Shown here: piece after piece, positions 25,604 to 52,704 of the stretch
Layout: each line of letters opens with the position of its first letter
Position numbering within the stretch: the stretch's first letter is position 1
NCBI GenBank assembly: GCA_964439885.1
Contig: CAYTPE010000001.1
Span: 9,031-73,030 of the forward strand
Reading direction: 5' to 3'
From: an uncultured Gammaproteobacteria bacterium
GTDB taxonomy: Bacteria; Patescibacteriota; Patescibacteriia; Magasanikbacterales; GWA2-37-8
DNA: 64,000 nucleotides
Notes under the pieces: generated by a model
The model's input: only the letters and a program-made list of their open reading frames with translations
The model's database searches: none
What the model was told of the DNA's origin: nothing
Made by a program: the position numbers and the translations under genes

Positions 25604-25639
25604 CACCGCCGCGAGGTGGGATCCCACCTCGCGGCGGTG
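25604..25639. repeat. perfect 36-nt palindrome (CACCGCCGCGAGGTGGGATCCCACCTCGCGGCGGTG) downstream of the nucleotidyltransferase gene
   Basis: Exact dyad symmetry centred on GGATCC, with no flanking T-tract. Could be an operator or a T-tract-less terminator hairpin. Confidence 0.5.
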
Positions 25640-33808: not shown

Positions 33809-33900
33809 GCAGTGAATCGTTTACTCCTTATTCTTTACTCTTTACTCTTTTGAAAAAGCATGGTATGATAAGTATGAAATTACATATTTAACTTTTTTCT

Positions 33901-38094: not shown

Positions 38095-39327
38095 ATGAAT
38101 TTCACCCCCATACAACTCGCTTACGGCTCACTGGTTCGTCAAAAGAAACGAGCGATTTTAACGATGCTCGCGATTGCTATTGGTATTGCAGCTGTTATCA
38201 CTATTAGCGCGGCAGGAGCAGGGCTTCGAAGGCTGGTGCTGGGGCAGATCGATATTTTTGGCGCAAGTACGTTTCATATAGAAACCCGTGTGCCAAGCTC
38301 AAAAAGCTCTGGCGGGTTTGGTTCAGTTGGTATTACTATTACCACTCTCAAAGAAAAAGATGTGATTGATATGCTGAAACTCCCGAATGTGGAGGCGGCC
38401 GAAGGTGAAGTATCGGGCCAGGAAATCGTGAGCTATAACGGACAGATTAGCAAATCATTACTTTCTGGTGCCGGCTACTCATCACCTGAAGTGCAGGTGC
38501 TTGAATTTCAAGAAGGACGTTTCTATACCAAAGACGAAGAAGATTCGCTCGCACAGGTAGCAGTGCTCGGACCCAAAACCAAACAAAAATTATTTGGTGA
38601 TGATACGGCCGAAGGCAAAACTATCTACATCAAAGGCAAACCGTTCCGCGTGATTGGCGTTCTGAAGCCGCGTGGCGCAGCATTCTTTTTTGACCTCGAC
38701 AATATGGTGATGCTCCCCACTAAAACCATGCAAAAACGATTGCTCGGGATAGATTACTATGTGAGTATTTCCGGTAAATTTAAAGACGTAAACCAGTCCG
38801 AAAGTACCGCGAAGGATATTGCCTATATCTTGCGTGAAAATCACAATATAGCCGACGAGGCTCATGATGACTTTGTGGTGCAAACGACGGTGCAGGCGCA
38901 GTCGTCACTCAGTGCGATCACGAGCGGTATTACTCTATTACTTATCGCACTCGTCTGCATCTCGCTTATTGTAGGTGGAGTTGGCATTATGAATATCATG
39001 TATGTATCGGTAGCCGAACGCACCTTCGAAATCGGTTTGCGCAAGTCGCTTGGAGCCAAAGGACGCGATATTTTGGGTCAATTTTTGGCGGAGGCAGTGC
39101 TTGTGACGCTCGGCGGGGGAGTGGTGGGAGTCGTGCTCGGCGCGCTTTTGGCTTTGCTTATTTATCTTGGTGCCACTGCAGCCGGATTTAAATGGGTGTT
39201 CAGCATTTCTCTTTCATCTATCATTTTGTCAGTTTGCTTTTCCGGTTTTATTGGCTTACTCTTTGGCTTGTACCCAGCCAAAAAGGCCGCGGCACTCAAT
39301 CCAATCGAAGCACTAAGGAAGGAATAA
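38095..39327 (+). CDS. ABC transporter permease (MacB/FtsX-like), second copy
   Basis: 410 aa, same architecture (VSVAERTFEIGLRKSLGAKGRDI). Confidence 0.8.
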   Translation: MNFTPIQLAYGSLVRQKKRAILTMLAIAIGIAAVITISAAGAGLRRLVLGQIDIFGASTFHIETRVPSSKSSGGFGSVGITITTLKEKDVIDMLKLPNVEAAEGEVSGQEIVSYNGQISKSLLSGAGYSSPEVQVLEFQEGRFYTKDEEDSLAQVAVLGPKTKQKLFGDDTAEGKTIYIKGKPFRVIGVLKPRGAAFFFDLDNMVMLPTKTMQKRLLGIDYYVSISGKFKDVNQSESTAKDIAYILRENHNIADEAHDDFVVQTTVQAQSSLSAITSGITLLLIALVCISLIVGGVGIMNIMYVSVAERTFEIGLRKSLGAKGRDILGQFLAEAVLVTLGGGVVGVVLGALLALLIYLGATAAGFKWVFSISLSSIILSVCFSGFIGLLFGLYPAKKAAALNPIEALRKE

Positions 39328-39379
39328 TGTTGAGTGAAGGCTGGTGAATTGCCGTTGGGTACAAAAAATATTTTAAAAA

Positions 39380-39410
39380 AAATAAAACCTTGGACAAAGG
39401 TTTTTTTGTT
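39380..39410. terminator. bidirectional terminator hairpin flanked by an A-run and a T-run
   Basis: AAAAAAATAAAACCTTGGACAAAGGTTTTTTT. It terminates the + strand permease operon and the - strand tRNA(UCA)-containing transcript. Confidence 0.5.
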
Positions 39411-39411
39411 G

Positions 39412-39687
39412 TGTAGTAGCTGGCCTGCCTCGGCTGCTACAGCTTGCTCCATCACCACCGGAGGGTAAGGTGAGAGCACATGCTGTGCAGCCGAGGCGAG
39501 GTCACTTGGCCCTACGCACGTACGTGCGTAGGTAAAGAGAGCCGCGGGCACCCGCTCGTCGCCGCCATGCCTTGTTCGTTCACCGGGGGGCCGGAGTTTT
39601 CCGAACAGAGACACACACGCGGTCACGACTAGCGGGGCCCGAGGCCCGACTGTGCCAACCACGATGAAGCTGTGGCTGGCGTTTGGA
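39412..39687 (-). ncRNA. GC-rich highly structured RNA of unknown class, co-transcribed downstream of tRNA(UCA)
   Basis: About 276 nt at about 65% GC in an AT-rich context, with no plausible ORF. Contains several perfect or near-perfect helices, including the 22-nt palindrome CCTACGCACGTACGTGCGTAGG, GCCTCGGCTGC...GCAGCCGAGGC (11 bp, long-range), GGGCCtcgGGCCC and CCGGccccCCGG. Bounded by the tRNA on one side and a terminator on the other. Confidence 0.25.
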
Positions 39688-39757
39688 TGGGGCCAGGAGG
39701 ATTCGAACCTCCGCATTCCGGTTTGAAGCCGGACGCTCACCTCTGAGCCATAGCCCC
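39688..39757 (-). tRNA. tRNA-like gene with anticodon UCA (UGA-decoding; resembles Trp-type anticodon arm)
   Basis: Hand-folded 70-nt cloverleaf: acceptor GGGGCUA/UGGCCCC, D-arm GCUC-AGAGGU-GAGC (short loop), anticodon stem UCCGG/CCGGA with loop CUUCAAA (U33, U34-C35-A36, A37), 4-nt variable loop, T-arm GGAGG-UUCGAAU-CCUCC, discriminator A. No encoded CCA. Confidence 0.5.
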
Positions 39758-39898
39758 ATACACCAGCACCGCCGAAGCGGTGCCGTCCTCTCTCACGCAC
39801 ATGCATGCGTGAGAAAAAAGCGACCCCCAAACCCGGGATCCGTCCACGGGAGGGAACCCGCGACAAACCACGCGAGATCTGGGGGTCAGTTGGGCACA

Positions 39899-39927
39899 AG
39901 TAAACCAGTTTTGGTGTGTTTTGTCAA
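39899..39927 (-). promoter_or_regulatory. putative sigma70-type promoter (TTGACA-17-TTTACT) driving the tRNA(UCA)-structured RNA unit
   Basis: The reverse complement of 39899-39927 reads TTGACAaaacacaccaaaactggTTTACT, about 130 nt upstream of the tRNA 5' end. Confidence 0.3.
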
Positions 39928-40199
39928 TAGCTAAAGAAAAATGAATGTCGATAAAGTGGCTAAATTAAACAGAATTTCACAATTATAGTGAAAAAAGTAA
40001 AACAAAAAATCCCCACTCAAATAGTAAGGATTTTTATCTTGATGAAGCCTTTTTCCAAAAGGAAATGCCTCGGCTACTCGTTAAATCTATACGCATCGGT
40101 AGAGACCTAACGAGTCGGTAGCCGGGGCGAGGCTTCCGTCTCGCTCCGTTGTGGCGGGGTGGGGGCGGCACGGAGGAGCCGCCAGCGGGGGGCTCCTCT

Positions 40200-40376
40200 T
40201 CAGCTCTTGTAGAGGTAGAACACGACGGCGCCCGCTCCGAAGAGCAGGCAGAGCCACGAGAAGTGGCTCATGAGTCGGGGGAAGAAGCGGAAGTTGTCCC
40301 GATCGATCCACCAGAGGATCCTCACCCAAACTCCCACTGCGAAGAGCAGTATTCCAAGCACTCGCCACGTTTCCAT
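40200..40376 (-). CDS. small (58 aa) two-helix membrane protein with atypical GC3-rich codon usage
   Basis: METWRVLGILLFAVGVWVRILWWIDRDNFRFFPRLMSHFSWLCLLFGAGAVVFYLYKS. A perfect GGAGGAGG ribosome-binding site lies 5-6 nt upstream of the ATG, which is unusual for this genome. Stop codon TGA; GC-rich hairpins downstream. Confidence 0.4.
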   Translation of the reverse strand: METWRVLGILLFAVGVWVRILWWIDRDNFRFFPRLMSHFSWLCLLFGAGAVVFYLYKS

Positions 40377-40695
40377 CTTGACCTCCTCCGGGTCACCACG
40401 ACCCGTGTCTACCGCAATAGTATATACGCATAATACACTACTACGATCGACACCGGTCAGAAAGATTACATTATTAAAGCGCACTTTATTTAAATAAAAC
40501 ATACTCTAGGGCAGGCTTAATGTCAATAATGACGAAACATTATACGGAATATTCAAGGTGAGAATTTTTTTATACTCCGCAGTTACTTTTTTGGTTTAAT
40601 TAGCGTATATAGTAGCGTGCTATTGGCAGGGTTATGAGTGTGCTTCTGTAAAGCATATTTATAACCCGGCCGATGTCGCTGGGGGGAGGAAGAAG

Positions 40696-40965
40696 ATGGC
40701 CAATCGTCGTGCAAACGTGGTGCCGGGAGCTCCGGCGCCGGTTACTCCAGACCGTACCGCCGGGGCCGATGCCCCGACGCGGTACATGCCTCAGATCGAT
40801 GGCAGCAGTGCGGCCGACAAGCGGCATCGGCCGCTCGCTGACGGGCTGGCAGAGAGCCGGCTCGTCCAGATCGTCTGCCTGCGCCGCTACCTCTGGGTGG
40901 CGGGCGGAATCGCGGCCCTGGAGGCCGCTCTGCTGGCCGCGCTGGCGGCTAAGTTCCTCCTCTAG
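40696..40965 (+). CDS. small (89 aa) protein with Pro/Ala-rich N-terminus and a C-terminal transmembrane helix; GC3-rich codon usage
   Basis: GGGGGAGGaagaagATG ribosome-binding site. C-terminal RLVQIVCLRRYLWVAGGIAALEAALLAALAAKFLL. Followed by a strong 11-bp GC hairpin (GGGGTCTCGCC...GGCGAGACCCC). Confidence 0.4.
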   Translation: MANRRANVVPGAPAPVTPDRTAGADAPTRYMPQIDGSSAADKRHRPLADGLAESRLVQIVCLRRYLWVAGGIAALEAALLAALAAKFLL

Positions 40966-41086
40966 GAGGCTGACCCCGCGGGGTCTCGCCCGTGAGCGCT
41001 TTCGAGCGACCGGCGAGACCCCCGGGTCTCACTACTCCACGTATTGCTTTTTAAGCCGTGGGGTGATAAGGTTTGAGTGTTGTGTG

Positions 41087-41199
41087 AAAAGAATAAAGAG
41101 TAAAGAATAAAGAATAATAAACGAAACCACCACTCTTTACCTGCCTGCGTAGGCAGGCTCTTTACTCTTTACTCTTTACTCTTTACTCTTTACTCTTTC
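41087..41199. repeat. inverted heptamer tandem arrays (TAAAGAR x3 ... CTCTTTA x6) flanking a central GC hairpin, immediately upstream of dnaG
   Basis: aaaGAATAAAGAGTAAAGAATAAAGAAtaa ... GCCTGCgtagGCAGGC ... CTCTTTACTCTTTACTCTTTACTCTTTACTCTTTACTCTTTC. Confidence 0.6.
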
Positions 41200-41205
41200 T
41201 CATCC

Positions 41206-43041
41206 GTGGCCACCGATACACAGGCGATAAAGGATCGCATCGACATCGTACAACTCATCGGCGAATACATAACACTCAAAAAAGCGGGCGCGAACTGGAA
41301 AGCCAACTGCCCGTTCCATCACGAAAAATCGCCGTCATTTATGGTGCATGCCGATAAGCAAATCTGGCATTGTTTTGGTTGTGGGAAAGGCGGCGATATT
41401 TTTAGCTTTGTGCAAGAAATGGAAGGGCTTGATTTTGTGGAAGCGCTGAAACTCCTGGCCAAGCGTGCCGGTGTACCAATAGAAACATTCAAAAGCGAAA
41501 CCGACACGAGCGCGCGCAACCGGGTGCTGGAAGTGAACACGAAAGCGGCGGAATTTTTTCACCGCGTTCTCATGGAGTTGCCCGCATCTCAAAGCGCGCG
41601 CGAATATCTGGAGCGCCGCGGATTGAAAAGAGAAACTATTATAGAATGGCAAATTGGATTTATTCCCGACCAGTGGGATTTGCTCACTCGATATTTTCTC
41701 AAAAAAGGTTTTGGTATCAACGACTTGGTAGCCGCGGGACTGGTGATTAAACGTGAAGGAGTCACTTCGACTACCACCCCTACCCCTCCTTCGCAAGGAG
41801 GGGAGATTACGAGTGAATCCATACGTGGGTATTACGACCGTTTTCGTGGACGTGTAATGTTTCCTATTGCCGACACGCATGGCAATGTGGTGGGTTTTAC
41901 CGGCCGTGTACTGGTCGAAACCGAGAATTCGGGGGGTAAATACGTCAATACTCCGCAAACCGCCGTCTACGATAAATCACGTGTGCTGTATGGGCTTTCT
42001 CGAGCGAAAACTGAAATAAAAAACCAGGATCAGGTTGTACTAGTAGAAGGTCAGATGGATGTGATAGCCTGCCACCAGGCGGGCATGAAGAACGTCGTAG
42101 CCGCATCGGGCACCGCGCTGACAACAGAGCAGATTAAACTGATTAAACGATATACGACCAATATTGCCATGGCGTTCGACGCCGACAGCGCCGGAGAGAA
42201 TGCCGGCAAACGTGGTATTACCACAGCGATATCCGAAGCAATGAACGTGCGCGTGATTCGTATTCCACCCGGCTTTGCCAAAGACGCTGACGAGTGCATC
42301 AAAAAAGATCCGACGGTATGGTTTACGGCGGTGAAAGAAGCAGCTGATGTGATGGAGTGGTATCTGGCGATTGTACTCTCACGCTATGATATTCGTGAAC
42401 CCAAAGCGAAACGCGTCGCCGCGACTATTCTGCTCGAACAAATCCGCTCTATTCCCAACGCCGTGGAACGCGATGAATGGATTAAACGAGTAAGCGGCGA
42501 ACTCGGTATCGAATTACCCATTTTACGCGAAGAACTCAAAAAAATTAAAACGTTGCCGTCACCAAAAAACAATGAGCCCGTGAGTAAAGTGGTAGAGCGA
42601 GTAGAAGCACTCACACCGTACGAATTGTTGCTGCAGGAATTTTGGTCATTACTTTTGAAATTCCCGGAATTGTATTCGACATACGCGAGTTCGCTGTCGC
42701 CAGACTATTTCGCAGGCACACCTTTTAGTGCTCTTTACCAAAACGCTGTGGGTGTGTATACTAAAGCTCAAGCACTGGATATGGAAGCGCTTCGACAACT
42801 CTATGCGACCGAAGCGCAAAATCCGATTGATATATTGGTGCTCCGACCCTACCGCAATGTAGAGGATTTGTCGCTGCCGACCGCTAAAGCCGAACTCACT
42901 GAATTGTGGAAGCGCATCGCCGAGCAGTGGAACAAAGAACGACGCAAGGCACTGGAGAGAGAAATGGCGATGGCCGAAAAAAGTGGGGAGAAACAGAAGA
43001 TGCTTGAGCTGCTCCAAGAACTACAAAATTTGAACGTTTAA
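41206..43041 (+). CDS. dnaG: DNA primase
   Basis: 611 aa. CHC2 zinc finger CPFHHEKSPSFMVHADKQIWHCFGCGKGGD, TOPRIM EGQMDVIACHQAG...AFDADSAG. Carries a Thr/Pro-rich insertion (TSTTTPTPPSQGGE) before the RNA-polymerase domain core. Confidence 0.9.
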   Translation: MATDTQAIKDRIDIVQLIGEYITLKKAGANWKANCPFHHEKSPSFMVHADKQIWHCFGCGKGGDIFSFVQEMEGLDFVEALKLLAKRAGVPIETFKSETDTSARNRVLEVNTKAAEFFHRVLMELPASQSAREYLERRGLKRETIIEWQIGFIPDQWDLLTRYFLKKGFGINDLVAAGLVIKREGVTSTTTPTPPSQGGEITSESIRGYYDRFRGRVMFPIADTHGNVVGFTGRVLVETENSGGKYVNTPQTAVYDKSRVLYGLSRAKTEIKNQDQVVLVEGQMDVIACHQAGMKNVVAASGTALTTEQIKLIKRYTTNIAMAFDADSAGENAGKRGITTAISEAMNVRVIRIPPGFAKDADECIKKDPTVWFTAVKEAADVMEWYLAIVLSRYDIREPKAKRVAATILLEQIRSIPNAVERDEWIKRVSGELGIELPILREELKKIKTLPSPKNNEPVSKVVERVEALTPYELLLQEFWSLLLKFPELYSTYASSLSPDYFAGTPFSALYQNAVGVYTKAQALDMEALRQLYATEAQNPIDILVLRPYRNVEDLSLPTAKAELTELWKRIAEQWNKERRKALEREMAMAEKSGEKQKMLELLQELQNLNV

Positions 43042-46257: not shown

Positions 46258-49200
46258 ATGCATTTGGGAAGTGCTCGTACAATAGCTGCACAATTAGGCC
46301 GCATTACCGGCTATTTTTTGCTTTTTGTACTTGCTTTAGGGGGCCTTTTTGTTGATCCGTTTGTATCGACAGCTGCCACTGGTGTACCTAAAATTTTCAC
46401 CTATCAGGGTCGTTTGCTTGATGGGGCGGGGAATTTGCTTGGTGGCAATGGTACCAACTATTGTTTCCGTTTCTCGCTGTACGACAACGCCACCGTCGGG
46501 CAGGGCGCAAAGGTATGGCCGGCAGGAGTTCCGTCTACCATGACGCTACAAGTTAAGAGCGGTGTTTTCAACGGCGCAATCGGCGATCTTGCTGCGGGAG
46601 GGGATTTGCTTGATTATAATTTTCAGGATTCCGATGAGGTGTACTTGAACGTAGAAGTAGCAGCCCAGGTGGGTGGCTCATGCGCGGGTGTGGCATTCGA
46701 AACACTGGCTCCACGTCAGCGTGTGACTGCTAGCGGTTATGCCATCAACGCGAACACAGATGGCGGATTTACCACATCGCAGATTGCAACAGGCAGCCAG
46801 ATTCCCGTGCACACCAATGGTGCTATCGTGCTTGGTGGTGCCACTGCCGGGCTCAGTGCTACCAACGCAAACCCGCTTCTTTTGCAGGGGAGTGGTAGTG
46901 GTGACATTCAATTTTTTTCTGCACTGAATAAACTTTCTTCTGCCGGTAATTTAACATTGGCCGGATCACTCACTGCCAACGGCGCACTTCTCATCAACAA
47001 TGACGCGACTATTACTGGCACAACGACGTTGGCAACAACGAGTATTTCCAAAGCAACAATTGCGAATGCTACGGTGAATAATTTAACTGTAACGGGGGTG
47101 TGTTTTGGTTGTGGTGGGGGGGGGGCGGCAGGTGGGGTGAACACATCAACGGCAGGATACATGGCGTATTATCTGAATGGCACAAGCGTAACGGGCACAA
47201 GCATGGTGACCTTTGCTGGTAACACATTTACGGTTTCAGGTTTGTCTGTATTTACTGCTACCGCAACTTTTGCCACAACAAGCATTACGAACGCCGCTAT
47301 TGGCTCTGCTTCAGTAGGAAATTTGGTAGCTACAAACAGTACATCGACAAATAGCTTTGCTGAGGGGCTTGCTTATACCAATTTGTCTGGTGTCAATGCT
47401 ACTTCGACAAATTTGTTTGCGTCACAATTTAATTTTGTGAATGCAAATGGAACGAGTCTGACTTCTACGAATGCATTTTTTTCTAATTTAGCTGTAGGTA
47501 ATTTCAGTCCGACGAATTTGTCGACTTCTAACATTACCACTACCAATTTTGTCGCGACGGGCGCGGTGAGTCTGCCAGTTAACTCGGTGACCGACGCGAT
47601 GGTTTCGAACTCTTTGACTATTGACAACACGGGAAATATTTCCGCTACCGCTATCAATTCGGGAACACTTGGTAACAATGCTGTCACGTTGGCTCTCGGA
47701 TCTTTTGGCTCGATCACTGGAGCGCTTGGAGATGCCAACGTAGCGGACAATCTTACCATCAACGGTGGCACTATTAACAACACAACGATTGGCGCGTCGA
47801 GCCCCTCCACGGGTGTGTTTACGAACGCGACAGCTACCAATTTTGTTGCCTCGAATGTTACCACTACTAATTTGGCAGTGACGGGAGCACTAAGTGTGAC
47901 CTCACTCAACCCCACGAATTTGGCTTGGGTAAACGCCACGGGAACGAACAGTATTCTGAACAATGTAACAAGTACGAATTTGTCCGTCTCTGGCTTAACC
48001 ACTCTCGCCAACACCACCTTGACCAACGCCACCTCCACCAACTTCAACACCGTTGGCCTCACCTTCACCAACGCCACGGGCACCAACAGTGTCTTCACGA
48101 ACGCTACCAGTACCAACCTCTTTAGCACTGGCCTTGCCTTCACCAACTTAAACGGTACGAATGCCACCTCCACCAACTTCTTTGCCACCAACCTCGCGAG
48201 CCTTGGCCTGACCAGCACCTACGGCAACCTCTCCTTTATCACCGCCACCGGTGTCACCTCCACCAACGCGAGCTTTACGAACCTCAGTGCTGCCACCTTC
48301 AACCCCACCAATCTCACCTGGACCAACGCCACGGGGACCAACAGCGTCCTGACCAATGTGACCAGCACCAACCTCGCCGTCAGTGGCCTGGTTGCCTTAA
48401 CAGGGAACACCACCTTGACCAACGCCACCTCCACCAACCTCTTCTCAACCGGCCTCGCCTTCACCAACCTCTCTGGTACCAACGGAACAAGTACCAATTT
48501 CTTTGCCACGAACCTCGCGAGCCTTGGCATTACGTCCACGTATGGCACCATTACCTTCTTAACAACCAGCGGCATCACCTCAACCAACGCGAGCTTGACC
48601 AACGTTACCTCCACCAACCTGTCCGTCTCTGGCTTAACCACTCTCGCCAACACCACCTTGACCAACGCCACCTCCACCAACTTCAACACCGTTGGCCTCA
48701 CCTTCACCAACGCCACGGGCACCAACAGTGTCTTCACGAACGCTACCAGTACCAACCTCTTTAGCACTGGCCTTGCCTTCACCAACTTAAACGGTACGAA
48801 TGCCACCTCCACCAACTTCTTTGCCACCAACCTCGCGAGCCTTGGCCTGACCAGCACCTACGGCAACCTCTCCTTTATCACCGCCACCGGTGTCACCTCC
48901 ACCAACGCGAGCTTTACGAACCTCAGTGCTGCCACCTTCAACCCCACCAATCTCACCTGGACCAACGCCACGGGGACCAACAGCGTCCTGACCAATGTGA
49001 CCAGCACCAACCTCGCCGTCAGTGGCCTGGTTGCCTTAACAGGGAACACCACCTTGACCAACGCCACCTCCACCAACCTCTTCTCAACCGGTTTGGCATT
49101 TACTAATCTCAATGGTACCAATGGAACCAGCACCAACTTCTTTGCCACCAACCTCAGCAGTCTTGGCAGTACTTCCACCTACGGTAACATCTCCTTCATC

Positions 49201-52200
49201 ACGGCTAGTGGCATCACATCGACTAATGGTAATTTCACTAATTTAACAGCTTCGAACTTCATTCCAACCAATCTCACCTGGGTGAGTGCCACCGGTACCA
49301 ACACCGTTCTAACCAACGCCACATCAACCAACTTAAATACGGTTGGGTTAACCTTTACGAATGCCACGGGGACCAACGCTGTCTTGACCAACGCCACGTC
49401 AACCAACCTCTTCTCAACAGGTCTGGCATTTACTAACTTGAACGGCACGAACGCAACGAGCACCAACTTTTTTGCCACCAACCTAAGTAGTCTCGGGCTC
49501 ACCACTACGTATGAGAAAAGTACATTCCTTGTAGCGACAAATGCTACTTCAACTAATTCTTTTGTCACTAATCTATCAAGTCTAGGCATAACATCCACAT
49601 ACGCAAATCTTGGTTTCTTGGTAGGTACTAATATTACTTCAACAAATCAATACAGCAACGGTCTCACCTTTAATATCGCCACAGGTACCTCTATCACTAC
49701 TACAAATGCATATATCGCAAGTTTGGTCGTCGGCACATGTACGGGTTGTGGTGGCGGTGCGGCAAGCGGTGGTGTAAATACTTCGACAGCTGGAAATTTT
49801 GCTTATTATCAGGGTGCCAGCTCAGTCACCGGTACATCTGCCCTTACCTTGTCTGGTACGAATATTACTGCGAATGGCGCAGTAGCCTTAACTGCTACTA
49901 CCACCGCCACCAATCGTTTTATTAACACCATATCAAGCGGCTCAAATATATCAGTGGTCGGCAGCGTTGCTCTTGCCAACTCAGGTTCTAAACCATACAA
50001 CCTAGTACTTCGAGGACGGTATGCCTATGTAACAAATTTCGCTAGTTCTACCATATCTGTGGTTGATTTAAGCAATCCGGCAGCACCAACTGTAATTAAT
50101 ACAATTAGCGTTGGAATTAACGTCGGGCCAACAGGCATCGATAATGATAGTAGATATTTGTATGTTGCCGCGTCGTCTACGCCAAGCCTTTATATTTACG
50201 ATCTTTCAACTGCAGCAGCCCCGTCTCAAGTTGGTCAGTCGCTTTTGTCTTTTTCACCAACAGATATAGGAGTAGATGGTCATTTTGTCCTACTTCCGTC
50301 TCCGAGCTTTGGTCAGGTCCAAATTCGTGATATTAAATATCCAAATAATGTATCATCTGTTCCTGGCTTGGGTGGTGTTACTGGTGGAACCCGCATTACT
50401 ATCTTTGGTAAATATGCCTACTACTCGGGCTCTTCCAATCTGTATATTGCTGACGCCTCCAACCCTGCCTCAATGGTTGTTAATGGTAGTATTGCTATGC
50501 CTAATCAGGTTAATGGCGTGTATGTTGTAGACCGATACGCGTACGTATTAAATGGAGGCTCGTTAAACGTAGTTGATATTAGTACGCCCAGCGCTCCAGT
50601 AAATGTTGCGACCACTTCAATCGGCGGCACTCTCTGGGGAGTGGCTGGTACTGGCCGCTATCTCTACATTACAGATAAAGCCAACAGCTCCGTTGATGTC
50701 GTAGACGTGGCAAGCTCTACCAACCCAGTCTTAGTAAAAACCATTACAGGCTTTGCTTCACCGCAAGGCATCGCCGTTAACGGAAGATACGCCTACGTTG
50801 TAGATAATGGTGATGGTACTCTCTATGTAATTGATTTACAGGGAACGGAAGTGAGCTCTCTGGTGGCATATTCTGCCGATGTCGGTTCACAACAAATTAG
50901 AAATGATCTCTACATTGGCAACAAAGCTTTTGTGCTTGGAGGGTTGACTGTTGGTAGTTTGGGCATCGCGTCAGCCGGAGATCTTGTGGTCCAAGGCACC
51001 GGCAATTCTACACTAGCCGGCGCTTTGGTTGTTTCGTCATCCATTTCAGCAAGTGCTTTTTCTGTGTCTGATAATTCATTTTATACAAGTGTAGGAACAA
51101 CCTATATAACAAATCTAAACGCTACTAGCATTACCTCCACCAACCTCTTTTCTACCGGTCTCACCTTTACTAACGCTACAGGTACCAAGGCCATTTTCAC
51201 GAGCGCCACCTCGACGAATTTGTATACAACAAACGGCGTGTTTACTAATGCCACTACTACCAACCTGTATTCAAACGGGTTGGTCTTCTCACGCGCCACA
51301 AGTACGGCATTAACTTCCACCATCGCATACATCGGCAGCCTGACAGTCGGCAGCTGTTCAGGTTGTGGCGGCGGAGTCTCTTTGAGCGGCAATAATACAT
51401 GGAGCGGGCTAAATATATTTACCAATACTACCACATTAGCCACCACCACCATTTCAGGTATATTTGATGGTGATGCTAAATTCGTCCCAGCTAGCCCGAA
51501 TGGGAATGGTTTCCAAGTAATGAATTTAGAAAACGATGAGACGCTTTTCAGCGTCGGCCCTTCAGCAGGGAATGCTGATTTTGTGGCGATAGGGGATAGA
51601 AGTGCCGCGCTTACGACCACTACACTCTTATATGTTGATACCAAATCTGATGCTGGCGACCCCACGCCTCCACTGAGTGCGGACGGTGCTATCTATTATA
51701 ATTCGAATAGCAAAAAATTCCGGTGTTACGAAAATTCGTCATGGAAAAATTGTGATAGCGCTGCTAATGCTCAAACATTTACCGCCACAAGTACCTGGAA
51801 CAAGCCAAACGGTGTTACATATGTTACCGTGCGTTGTATTGGCGGTGGCGGTGGCGGTGGCGGCGGAAGTTCGAAGGCGGCTGGTGGTGCACGAGCTGGG
51901 GGCAGTGGCGGTGGCGGTGGCTCTGTGCTCATCAGAACATTTTTAGCTTCTGACGTAACATCTAGTATTGGTATTACTGTTGGCCAGCCAGGTGGGGCTG
52001 GCGCCGGCGGCGTAAACGGAGCCAACGGCACCAGCGGCAGCGCTGGTACTGCATCCAGTTTTGGCACGTATGTCACCTGTTATGGTGGTGGCGGCGGTTT
52101 TGGGGGCACAACTGCAGTGAATTCAGGTGGTACAGGTGGTGGTCACGGTGGTGCTGGTAATAGTGGCAGTGGTTCAGCTTCCACTGGCGGCTTGCCGGCT

Positions 52201-52704
52201 ACTGCCAGCAACGCAGTTGGTTTGTCGGGACAGGGTTCTGGTAGCAGCGCGGGTACGGCTTCTGGCCAACCATCCGAATGGGGTGGTGCTGCTGGTGGCG
52301 GATCTTCAATCACAGTAGCTAGTCAAAATGGCGGTACCTCGCTCTGGGGTTGTGGTGGCGGTGGCGCAGGTGGAAATATTACTACTGGTAACGTGGCCAA
52401 TGCACCAGGCGCTGGTGGTAACACCGGTGTTTGGGTTACGGCTGGCGGCGGCGGTGGAGCGGCTGGTTCAAGCGGTGCGGCTGGTACTAACGGCACCGAC
52501 GGAACGGGAGGAACCTCCTTGTTGTGCGGTAAAGGCGGCGGCGGTGGTGGATCTTCCACAAACGGTGCTAACAATGGCGGTACCGGTGGTAACGGTGGCG
52601 CTCCTGGCGGCGGCGGTGGTGGTGGTGGAGCCGGTACTACTACTGTTAATGGAGGTACTGGTGGCAGAGGAGGGGCAGGTGAGGTCGATGTATGGGCCTG
52701 GTAA
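46258..52704 (+). CDS. giant (2148 aa) secreted/cell-surface repeat protein: signal-anchor, Thr/Asn/Ser-rich ~106-aa tandem repeats, YVTN-type beta-propeller repeats, Gly-rich C-terminal domain
   Basis: N-terminal hydrophobic segment [15 protein letters not shown]. Low-complexity repeats of the form [46 protein letters not shown].... [29 protein letters not shown]... repeats (YVTN/LVIVD-like) follow. The final ~300 aa are about 45% Gly ([18 protein letters not shown]...[25 protein letters not shown]). Confidence 0.8.
47981..49258 (+). repeat. near-identical 639-bp (213-aa) tandem duplication inside the giant gene, itself composed of ~106-aa sub-repeats
   Basis: TGTCCGTCTCTGGCTTAACCACTCTCGCCAACACCACC... 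occurs at 47981 and again at 48620. Hundreds of following nucleotides are identical between the copies. Confidence 0.8.

Follow-up and report, generated by a model that had tools for sequence, protein, structure and literature searches.

The 64-kb window analyzed here, that is, the whole 64,000-nucleotide (nt) stretch of DNA presented above, carries between a MacB/FtsX-type permease gene and dnaG a GC-rich islet with two short divergent open reading frames (ORFs), ORF1 and ORF2, and a tRNA gene with the stop-codon anticodon UCA. The favored reading, to which we assign a probability of roughly 0.55, is that this accessory islet entered by lateral transfer from an unsampled pool of genes that has a higher GC content and uses Shine-Dalgarno (SD) sequences, and that it combines a credible orphan gene for a hairpin protein (ORF1), an uncertain ORF2 and the UCA tRNA. 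The composition of the islet, the break in synteny among relatives, the recurrence of a class of similar cassettes in related genomes, the anatomy of ORF1 and the lack of homologs are observed directly, whereas the lateral origin is inferred.

Setting, composition and borders of the islet

The DNA comes from a member of Candidatus Magasanikbacteria, within the Candidate Phyla Radiation (CPR)/Patescibacteria. The DnaG encoded in the window is 46 to 60% identical to the DnaG proteins of 80 metagenome-assembled genomes (MAGs), the specific labels of which are Magasanikbacteria or Patescibacteria; many of the other labels are generic or evidently wrong automatic ones. The comparison set consisted of 80 related loci, ~1.3 Mb (1.29 Mb) in total, plus the 64-kb window, and the host ORFs in the window with a length of 150 amino acids (aa) or more (n = 42) served as the host reference.

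A preliminary description of this DNA had placed a 58-aa ORF1 at 40200-40376 on the minus strand and an 89-aa ORF2 at 40696-40965 on the plus strand, and both frames are indeed present. The gap that contains them measures 1878 bp and separates dnaG (41206-43041), which is followed by rpoD, from an upstream pair of MacB/FtsX-type permease genes, the second of which (38095-39327; identified by the Pfam domains MacB_PCD and FtsX) borders the gap. The ten proteins flanking the gap are housekeeping or efflux proteins. Three GC-rich islands make up the gap (39406-39903, ~40043-40400 and 40633-41086), each with 61 to 65% GC and local peaks of 72 to 75%, separated by AT-rich spacers of 28 to 36% GC. 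The spacer from which the two ORFs diverge, without overlap of their coordinates, contains 33 to 36% GC, confirming that the DNA between them is AT-rich. The remainder of the window was found to contain no comparable GC island outside genes. With islands just 300 to 500 bp long and interleaved with the AT-rich spacers, the assembly is unlikely to be chimeric. The features of the gap are as follows (MFE, minimum free energy).

39384-39410, plus strand: intrinsic terminator of the permease gene, hairpin AAAACCTTggacaAAGGTTTT followed by a T-run; last host sequence to the left of the islet
39397-39414, plus strand: left copy, AAGGTTTTTTTGTTGTGT, of an imperfect 18-nt direct repeat, identical to 41068-41085 at 15 of 18 positions
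39415-39683, minus strand: four long non-coding hairpins 3' of the tRNA, ~62 to 68% GC; MFE -150 kcal/mol, z = -7.6 against dinucleotide shuffles
39684-39758, minus strand: tRNA, the UCA anticodon of which would read UGA; Rfam RF00005, 69.5 bits, loop CUUCAAA
39759-39903, minus strand: GC-rich leader on the 5' side of the tRNA, containing three stable hairpins, of which one has a UUCG tetraloop; MFE -84.8 kcal/mol, z = -6.4
40005-40035, minus strand: terminator-like hairpin of ORF1, 13 pairs and then the T-run TTTTTTGTTTT; the same hairpin appears in the computed fold
40040-40199, minus strand: 3' untranslated region of ORF1, rich in GC and strongly folded; fold of 40000-40210, z = -6.1
40200-40376, minus strand: ORF1, a 58-aa orphan for which a membrane hairpin of two helices is predicted; stop codon TGA
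40382-40389, minus strand: SD sequence of ORF1, GGAGGAGG, 5 nt before the ATG; a 7-mer match to AGGAGGT
40498-40526, minus strand: sigma-70-like promoter of ORF1, TTGACA-17-TATGTT, with 10 of 12 positions in a scan; a match to the consensus only
40681-40689, plus strand: GGGGGGAGG, 6 nt before the ATG of ORF2; either an SD sequence or a strand in a terminal helix
40696-40965, plus strand: ORF2, a possible 89-aa protein of uncertain coding status
40966-41035, plus strand: GC hairpins 3' of ORF2 (inverted repeat and fold), with no clear T-run
41068-41085, plus strand: right copy, AAGGTTTGAGTGTTGTGT, of the 18-nt direct repeat, at the right compositional border
41088-41199, plus strand: intergenic element of the host type, directly before the start of dnaG (41206), in which an inverted array of heptamers (AAAGAAT/AAAGAGT, then CTCTTTA x6) surrounds a hairpin

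Both ORFs are dominated by G- or C-ending codons, as the preliminary description had noticed. The GC content at codon positions 1/2/3 is 0.53/0.41/0.80 in ORF1 and 0.77/0.56/0.78 in ORF2, compared with host means of 0.54/0.39/0.49, and 47 of the 59 codons of ORF1 end in G or C and just 3 in T. The A/T-rich codon usage that had been ascribed to the host is wrong: the host GC content at the third codon position (GC3) is balanced, at 0.49 with a standard deviation of 0.054 (n = 42 ORFs). Equal-length chunks of host genes reached the GC3 of ORF1 or ORF2 in ~0.3% of draws (empirical p ~0.003), and all such chunks derive from one atypical giant gene, which encodes a 2148-aa repeat protein. On an index of host usage resembling the codon adaptation index, ORF1 scored 0.62 and ORF2 0.69, against 0.75±0.02 and a minimum of 0.70 for host genes. 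Both ORFs are thus true outliers from the host distribution of codon usage.

The giant gene (46258-52704, plus strand), which encodes the LVIVD-repeat protein, is the sole host gene with stretches of GC3 0.8. GC is higher at its second codon position than at the first (0.58 versus 0.44), GC skew is strongly negative at 48 to 50 kb, and the long antisense ORFs on its minus strand, which have SD-like motifs, are spurious.

The translation signals deviate as well. Strong SD sequences at ideal spacing (5 nt for ORF1 and 6 nt for ORF2) had been described as rare in the host, and this was borne out: the 42 host starts have a weak 4- to 5-mer at most, and a GGAGG-type sequence was found at 0/42. No 16S rRNA gene is present in the window or the related loci. 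Host genes (n = 42) end in TAA (33), TAG (6) or TGA (3), compared with TGA in ORF1 and TAG in ORF2.

No homolog of either ORF was found in anything searched, the related loci included, an outcome that the preliminary description had regarded as speaking against its proposal. A word-indexed search of 5.8 billion proteins with ORF1 retrieved only ORF1 itself, and an exhaustive phmmer search of 1.84 billion representatives added only two repeat-junk proteins that were inspected and rejected. ORF2 had no match in the 5.8 billion proteins (word-indexed search), viral contigs or phage records; for both ORFs, the viral contigs, the phage records and the rest of the window yielded nothing. Searches of the 80 related loci with tblastn produced chance matches only, in alternative frames of the permease gene, and comparison of the islet DNA with the related loci and plasmid records using blastn and tblastx recovered only low-complexity heptamer repeats.

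The borders of the islet are marked by host sequence on both sides, the permease terminator on the left and the heptamer array on the right. The same array also occurs at 33820-33850, upstream of another operon, and therefore the copy at 41088-41199 is taken as host sequence and as the right limit of the islet. At 33820-33850, the CTCTTTA array precedes an AbrB-like small gene and an HlyD/MacAB operon; such arrays may represent a shared regulatory or promoter-associated host element. The imperfect 18-nt direct repeat AAGGTTTnnnnGTTGTGT is present at both compositional borders. It is a possible insertion scar, or insertion-site duplication, notable solely for its position.

The variable gap and the cassette class in relatives

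The permease-dnaG order is conserved, with both genes located in 37 loci. The gap between them measures 23 to 175 bp in 17 of these and ~330 to 2556 bp, filled with unrelated cargo, in the other 20. Because both the length and the cargo of the gap vary among relatives, the site is a variable hotspot, and its content in the window is lineage-specific. Of the properties expected of a tRNA-targeted island, two were found, a deviant composition and a lack of the DNA at the corresponding site of relatives. The extra 1.7 to 1.9 kb relative to related genomes, the deviant GC3, the SD sequences and the stop codons mark the islet as accessory DNA that is very probably of lateral origin, in line with the horizontal acquisition that had been proposed.

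The hotspot cargo differs even between the closest relatives. In these relatives it is encoded on the minus strand, led by SD sequences and GC3-rich (0.65 to 0.79 versus 0.35 to 0.57 in the host), and a cassette protein of the closest relative is likewise an orphan. The cargo of four related loci (L001, L004, L040 and L071; TM, transmembrane) is listed below.

L001: 94-aa two-TM protein and two HD-domain paralogs
L004: 64-aa TM protein
L071: Band_7/SPFH lipoprotein (phrog_200, 1e-29) and a TM/coiled-coil protein
L040: 123-aa protein

A systematic screen of the 1.3 Mb detected 37 GC3-rich, SD-led ORFs, compared with 7 in a reversed-sequence null. The cassettes with the following coordinates have GC3 values of 0.65 to 0.9, versus 0.27 to 0.57 for their hosts, and strong SD sequences.

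L001: 7566-9884
L004: 1953-2147
L008: 15892-16383
L035: 20240-20608
L045: 16328-16837
L052: 15931-16458
L063: 8075-8371
L064: 9332-9859
L069: 9634-9864
L071: 6880-8478
L072: 8019-8279
L076: 3237-3644

The cassettes are single genes, usually on the strand opposite to their core neighbors. In 24 of the 27 tabulated cases, the ORFs of the window included, the upstream DNA has a GC content of 27 to 46%, lower than that of the ORF; hairpins are frequent downstream (z of -3 to -8), and 18 of 25 cassettes end in TAG or TGA. Many of the products are lipoproteins or small membrane proteins, and some contain real domains (HD, Band_7). ORFs of the class also tend to form more stable folds than their codon-shuffled versions. 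ORF1 and ORF2 match this class in every measurable respect. Three loci (L008, L045 and L052) share a syntenic lipoprotein with GC3 of 0.77 to 0.85 that is 32 to 51% identical among them, whereas their DnaG proteins are 79 to 92% identical. This divergence points to rapid turnover, through either very fast evolution or replacement of the cassette at a fixed site. A literature search yielded no account of GC3-rich, SD-led cassettes or of UCA tRNAs in Magasanikbacteria.

ORF1, ORF2 and the UCA tRNA

ORF1 looks like a real monocistronic gene, given its strong period-3 signal, ordinary mRNA fold, own promoter-like and terminator-like sites and hairpin model. The period-3 GC signal peaks over ORF1 (chi2 = 18), and the fold of its mRNA is unexceptional (z = -0.96). 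The promoter-like site is located 120 nt upstream of the gene, within the 33%-GC divergent spacer, and the terminator-like hairpin with its T-run 165 nt 3' of it. In agreement with the two-helix topology that had been predicted for this protein, AlphaFold2 placed helices at residues 3-27 and 32-57 (predicted local distance difference test score, 79), and the sequence is hydrophobic, with a maximum 19-residue Kyte-Doolittle value of 2.22. ORF1 is probably expressed, and its product would span the membrane as a hairpin. The NCBI annotation contains an N-terminally extended, 100-aa version of this frame (40200-40502, minus strand), which forms a singleton cluster. A 94-aa acidic antisense ORF on the plus strand was rejected, with GC1 higher than GC3, a TTG start, no SD sequence and no family match, and the islet contains no other credible ORF.

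GC hairpins follow both ORFs, as had been described. The 3' region of ORF1 (40040-40199) shows no coding periodicity. Read-through of the TGA codon would append 30 Arg/Pro-rich residues, for an 89-residue product; the added stretch has no periodicity either and coincides with the 3' hairpins. The possibility of a longer gene with TGA as a sense codon was rejected, given this lack of periodicity in the extension and the absence of a convincing frame.

ORF2 is a different matter, and of the preliminary claim of two membrane protein genes, the half that concerns ORF1 is credible, whereas the coding status of ORF2 is doubtful. The DNA here has ~70% GC, and frames of 145 and 75 aa are also open. 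An open frame is uninformative in this segment because DNA of such composition yields similar frames by chance. The NCBI annotation has, instead of ORF2, a 145-aa Arg-rich frame (40673-41110, plus strand), which again forms a singleton cluster; an incorrect frame or start is probable for both NCBI calls in the islet. The period-3 signal of ORF2 is confined to its Ala/Leu-rich 3' half (40770-41009), and the RNA is strongly folded (z of -5.0 to -5.9 relative to dinucleotide-shuffled sequences and -4.3 relative to codon-shuffled ones). In the MFE fold, the partner of GGGGGGAGG is UUCCUCCUC, located where ORF2 ends. In favor of a gene, GC is lowest at the second codon position, as is usual for coding DNA, the distance between GGAGG and the ATG is optimal, and a protein-coding-looking cassette ORF of a relative (L066) is equally structured (z = -4.9). 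The AlphaFold2 model, with a disordered Pro/Ala-rich N terminus and a C-terminal helix (residues 44-88), matches the earlier prediction. An 89-nt "tRNA-Pro(tgg)" called by ARAGORN at the 3' end of ORF2 (40887-40975, plus strand) had no Rfam tRNA match at E ≤10 and was discarded, being most likely a false positive produced by the GC hairpins.

The first island contains the UCA tRNA, embedded in hairpins. Adjacency to a tRNA had been noted before and holds, at 440 bp from ORF1, but the tRNA, with its anticodon for a stop codon, itself belongs to the foreign-looking DNA. Its Rfam score equals those of the other host tRNAs, and it is the sole UCA tRNA among 100 tRNAs in the window and the 80 related loci. 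As drawn by ARAGORN, the acceptor stem has 8 bp, the T stem 5 bp and the variable loop 4 nt, and an encoded CCA comes after the discriminator U; this 8/5 arrangement contrasts with the canonical 7/5 arrangement of the Rfam alignment. The D stem has 3 to 5 bp. The period-3 signal is negligible across 39450-39930 (chi2 <3) and reaches 7 to 10 at the left edge of the island, in windows starting at 39330 and 39390 (10.1 in 39390-39569). A permissive Rfam search of 39300-41300 detected no RNA family beyond the tRNA.

Alongside this tRNA, the host terminates 3 of 42 genes at TGA, and the ORFs neighboring the tRNA contain no in-frame TGA codons. With respect to ORF1, the UCA tRNA is most probably a coincidental passenger. 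The anticodon, which is certain, is shared with tRNA-Sec (selC). The 13-bp acceptor/T helix (8/5) of tRNA-Sec has a counterpart in the ARAGORN drawing and none in the Rfam alignment, and the islet tRNA lacks the long variable arm, having 4 nt instead, and the 6-bp D stem of that molecule, and its best Rfam family is RF00005. Suppressor tRNAs are known from stop-codon-recoded phages, and UGA-decoding tRNA(UCA) from bacteria with genetic codes 4 and 25. The likeness to these consists in a UCA tRNA that scores as canonical, situated in foreign-looking DNA of a standard-code host. Unlike the suppressor tRNAs of recoded phages, it is unaccompanied by phage genes and has no related tRNA in viral contigs, and it possibly has an 8-bp acceptor stem and an encoded CCA. 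Neither exact nor relaxed patterns of the tRNA matched anything in viral or metagenome collections, and in phage records there was just weak similarity to a Caulobacter phage tRNA-Phe.

Origin and function of the islet

Under the favored reading, a lineage-specific islet of ~1.7 kb (roughly 39415-41085) would have been inserted between the terminator of the MacB-type efflux operon and the dnaG-rpoD operon. It would comprise three self-contained GC units, namely, the hairpin-embedded UCA tRNA; ORF1 with its promoter, SD sequence and terminator; and the folded ORF2 segment, which may be the gene for an 89-aa protein anchored by a C-terminal helix or may instead be a remnant, decayed or without coding function. 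The donor pool would be an unsampled phage, plasmid or other bacterium, richer in GC and dependent on SD sequences for initiation, and the same pool would supply the other GC3-rich, SD-led, mostly opposite-strand cassettes of Magasanikbacteria. The ORF1 product would be inserted in the membrane as a hairpin and act as a "moron"-like envelope accessory peptide, the role of which may be exclusion, immunity or toxicity. The islet resembles genomic islets and "moron" single-gene insertions in that deviant DNA is present between housekeeping genes at a variable site, organized as self-contained units (promoter, ribosome-binding site, ORF and hairpin terminator) that encode orphan small envelope proteins. 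Unlike such insertions, it has no surrounding prophage, integrase or recognizable vehicle, its host makes no use of SD sequences, and it carries a stop-anticodon tRNA.

Several observations weigh against a recent lateral origin or against parts of this reading. Searches of protein, viral, metagenome, phage and plasmid collections yielded no donor for the ORFs, the tRNA or the islet DNA. The islet (39328-41205) includes no integrase, recombinase or transposase ORF, and none is present among the ten flanking proteins; an integron cassette is likewise unlikely, with no array and no integrase. The distant integrase or direct repeat of the tRNA 3' end for which the preliminary description had suggested looking were not found: the 22-nt end occurs once in the 64 kb, even when as many as 3 mismatches are tolerated. 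From local base composition, a few pairs like the 18-nt direct repeat are expected per 2 kb, so that this repeat is within chance. The best DnaG match is 60% identical, which leaves the insertion undatable and permits no selection test on the ORFs. Persistence of the GC3-rich lipoprotein at a syntenic position in three relatives indicates that high GC3 and SD sequences are possibly maintained within the lineage rather than recently imported, and ORF2 may be no gene at all.

This last point leads to the alternative that one or both ORFs are chance or decayed frames in GC-rich hairpin DNA, the SD sequence of ORF2 being a helix strand and the tRNA the only working part of the islet, if any; this explanation is somewhat unlikely. 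It draws on the frames of 75 to 145 codons open over ORF2 in ~70% GC DNA, from which NCBI picked another one, on the restriction of the ORF2 period-3 signal to the 3' half, and on the stable fold (z of -5 to -5.9) in which GGAGG is paired with CCUCC. The first island, moreover, is non-coding yet equally GC-rich, and neither ORF has a homolog. For ORF1, however, the frame-specific GC3, the 8-nt SD sequence at optimal spacing, the ordinary mRNA fold and the properly placed promoter and terminator are difficult to reconcile with a chance frame; for ORF2, strong mRNA folds also occur in cassettes with the shape of protein-coding genes, such as that of L066, and GC is lowest at position 2. That these genes instead belong to a native class of SD-led, GC3-rich envelope or accessory genes, maintained over a long time in Magasanikbacteria for privileged or regulated translation or for mRNA stability and without recent import, is unlikely. 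Such a class would account for the recurrence of the cassettes in many genomes, for the GC3 of 0.77 to 0.85 kept by the syntenic lipoprotein and for folds above codon-shuffled stability. Conversely, a lipoprotein identity of 32% at 92% DnaG identity fits replacement from an external pool better, and the orphan status of the cassettes, the different hotspot content of the closest relatives and the stop-codon usage unlike that of the host all point away from long-term maintenance.

The preliminary description had suggested holin-like or type I toxin-like peptides or a small-protein toxin/antitoxin pair. A membrane-acting killing module of any of these kinds is very unlikely, even though ORF1 is small and hydrophobic with two predicted helices, the ORFs diverge from one regulatory spacer, and the 30-residue, Arg/Pro-rich read-through tail resembles a holin C terminus. 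Searches with ORF1 and ORF2 of Pfam, PHROGs, NCBIfam, PADLOC and PDB sequences, along with a fold search, revealed no holin or toxin, nor any family, defense system, solved structure or fold to which either ORF could be assigned: the best profile match was phrog_502, "membrane protein" (E = 0.089), and no fold match had E <1 (best Foldseek value against BFVD, 1.1). No endolysin, spanin or other phage gene is located near the islet, the neighbors of which are MacB-type permeases, dnaG and rpoD. ORF1 is similar to class II holins and pinholins in size class and predicted two-helix hairpin, but as annotated it lacks their charged C-terminal tail, ending in ...VVFYLYKS with one charged residue after helix 2; a basic tail would exist solely on TGA read-through, into a stretch without periodicity. 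A family match, a dual-start motif and lysis-cassette neighbors are also missing. With the type I toxins Hok, TisB and Fst, ORF1 shares its short length (58 aa, under ~60), hydrophobicity, strong ribosome-binding site and long structured untranslated region. It differs from them in having two helices, compared with one in most type I toxins, and in matching no family. A consensus scan found no antisense promoter-like site directed into ORF1, which is weak evidence, and because ORF1 and ORF2 are divergent and non-overlapping, they do not form the overlapping antisense layout of type I systems.

Orphan accessory islets are common in bacterial genomes, and this one alone carries little functional information; the parts of the finding worth attention are the cassette class and the UGA-reading tRNA. 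If SD-led, GC3-rich cassettes occur genome-wide, they would bear on the source and translation of surface and accessory genes in reduced episymbionts. A bolder extension, and a quite unlikely one, is an undescribed channel of gene flow into CPR bacteria, through which such cassettes would arrive from GC-richer hosts or phages, receive "privileged" SD-dependent translation and bring their own UGA-reading tRNA, which could give an 89-residue, basic-tailed isoform of ORF1. Independently of this extension, and if it holds genome-wide, the coexistence of a well-formed UGA-reading tRNA with UGA stop codons would offer a testable lead, for CPR bacteria, on the suppression of stop codons or on recoded mobile elements.

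Elsewhere in the window, a perfect 36-nt GC-rich palindrome, CACCGCCGCGAGGTGGGATCCCACCTCGCGGCGGTG, occupies intergenic positions 25604-25639 and is unrelated to the hairpins of the islet.

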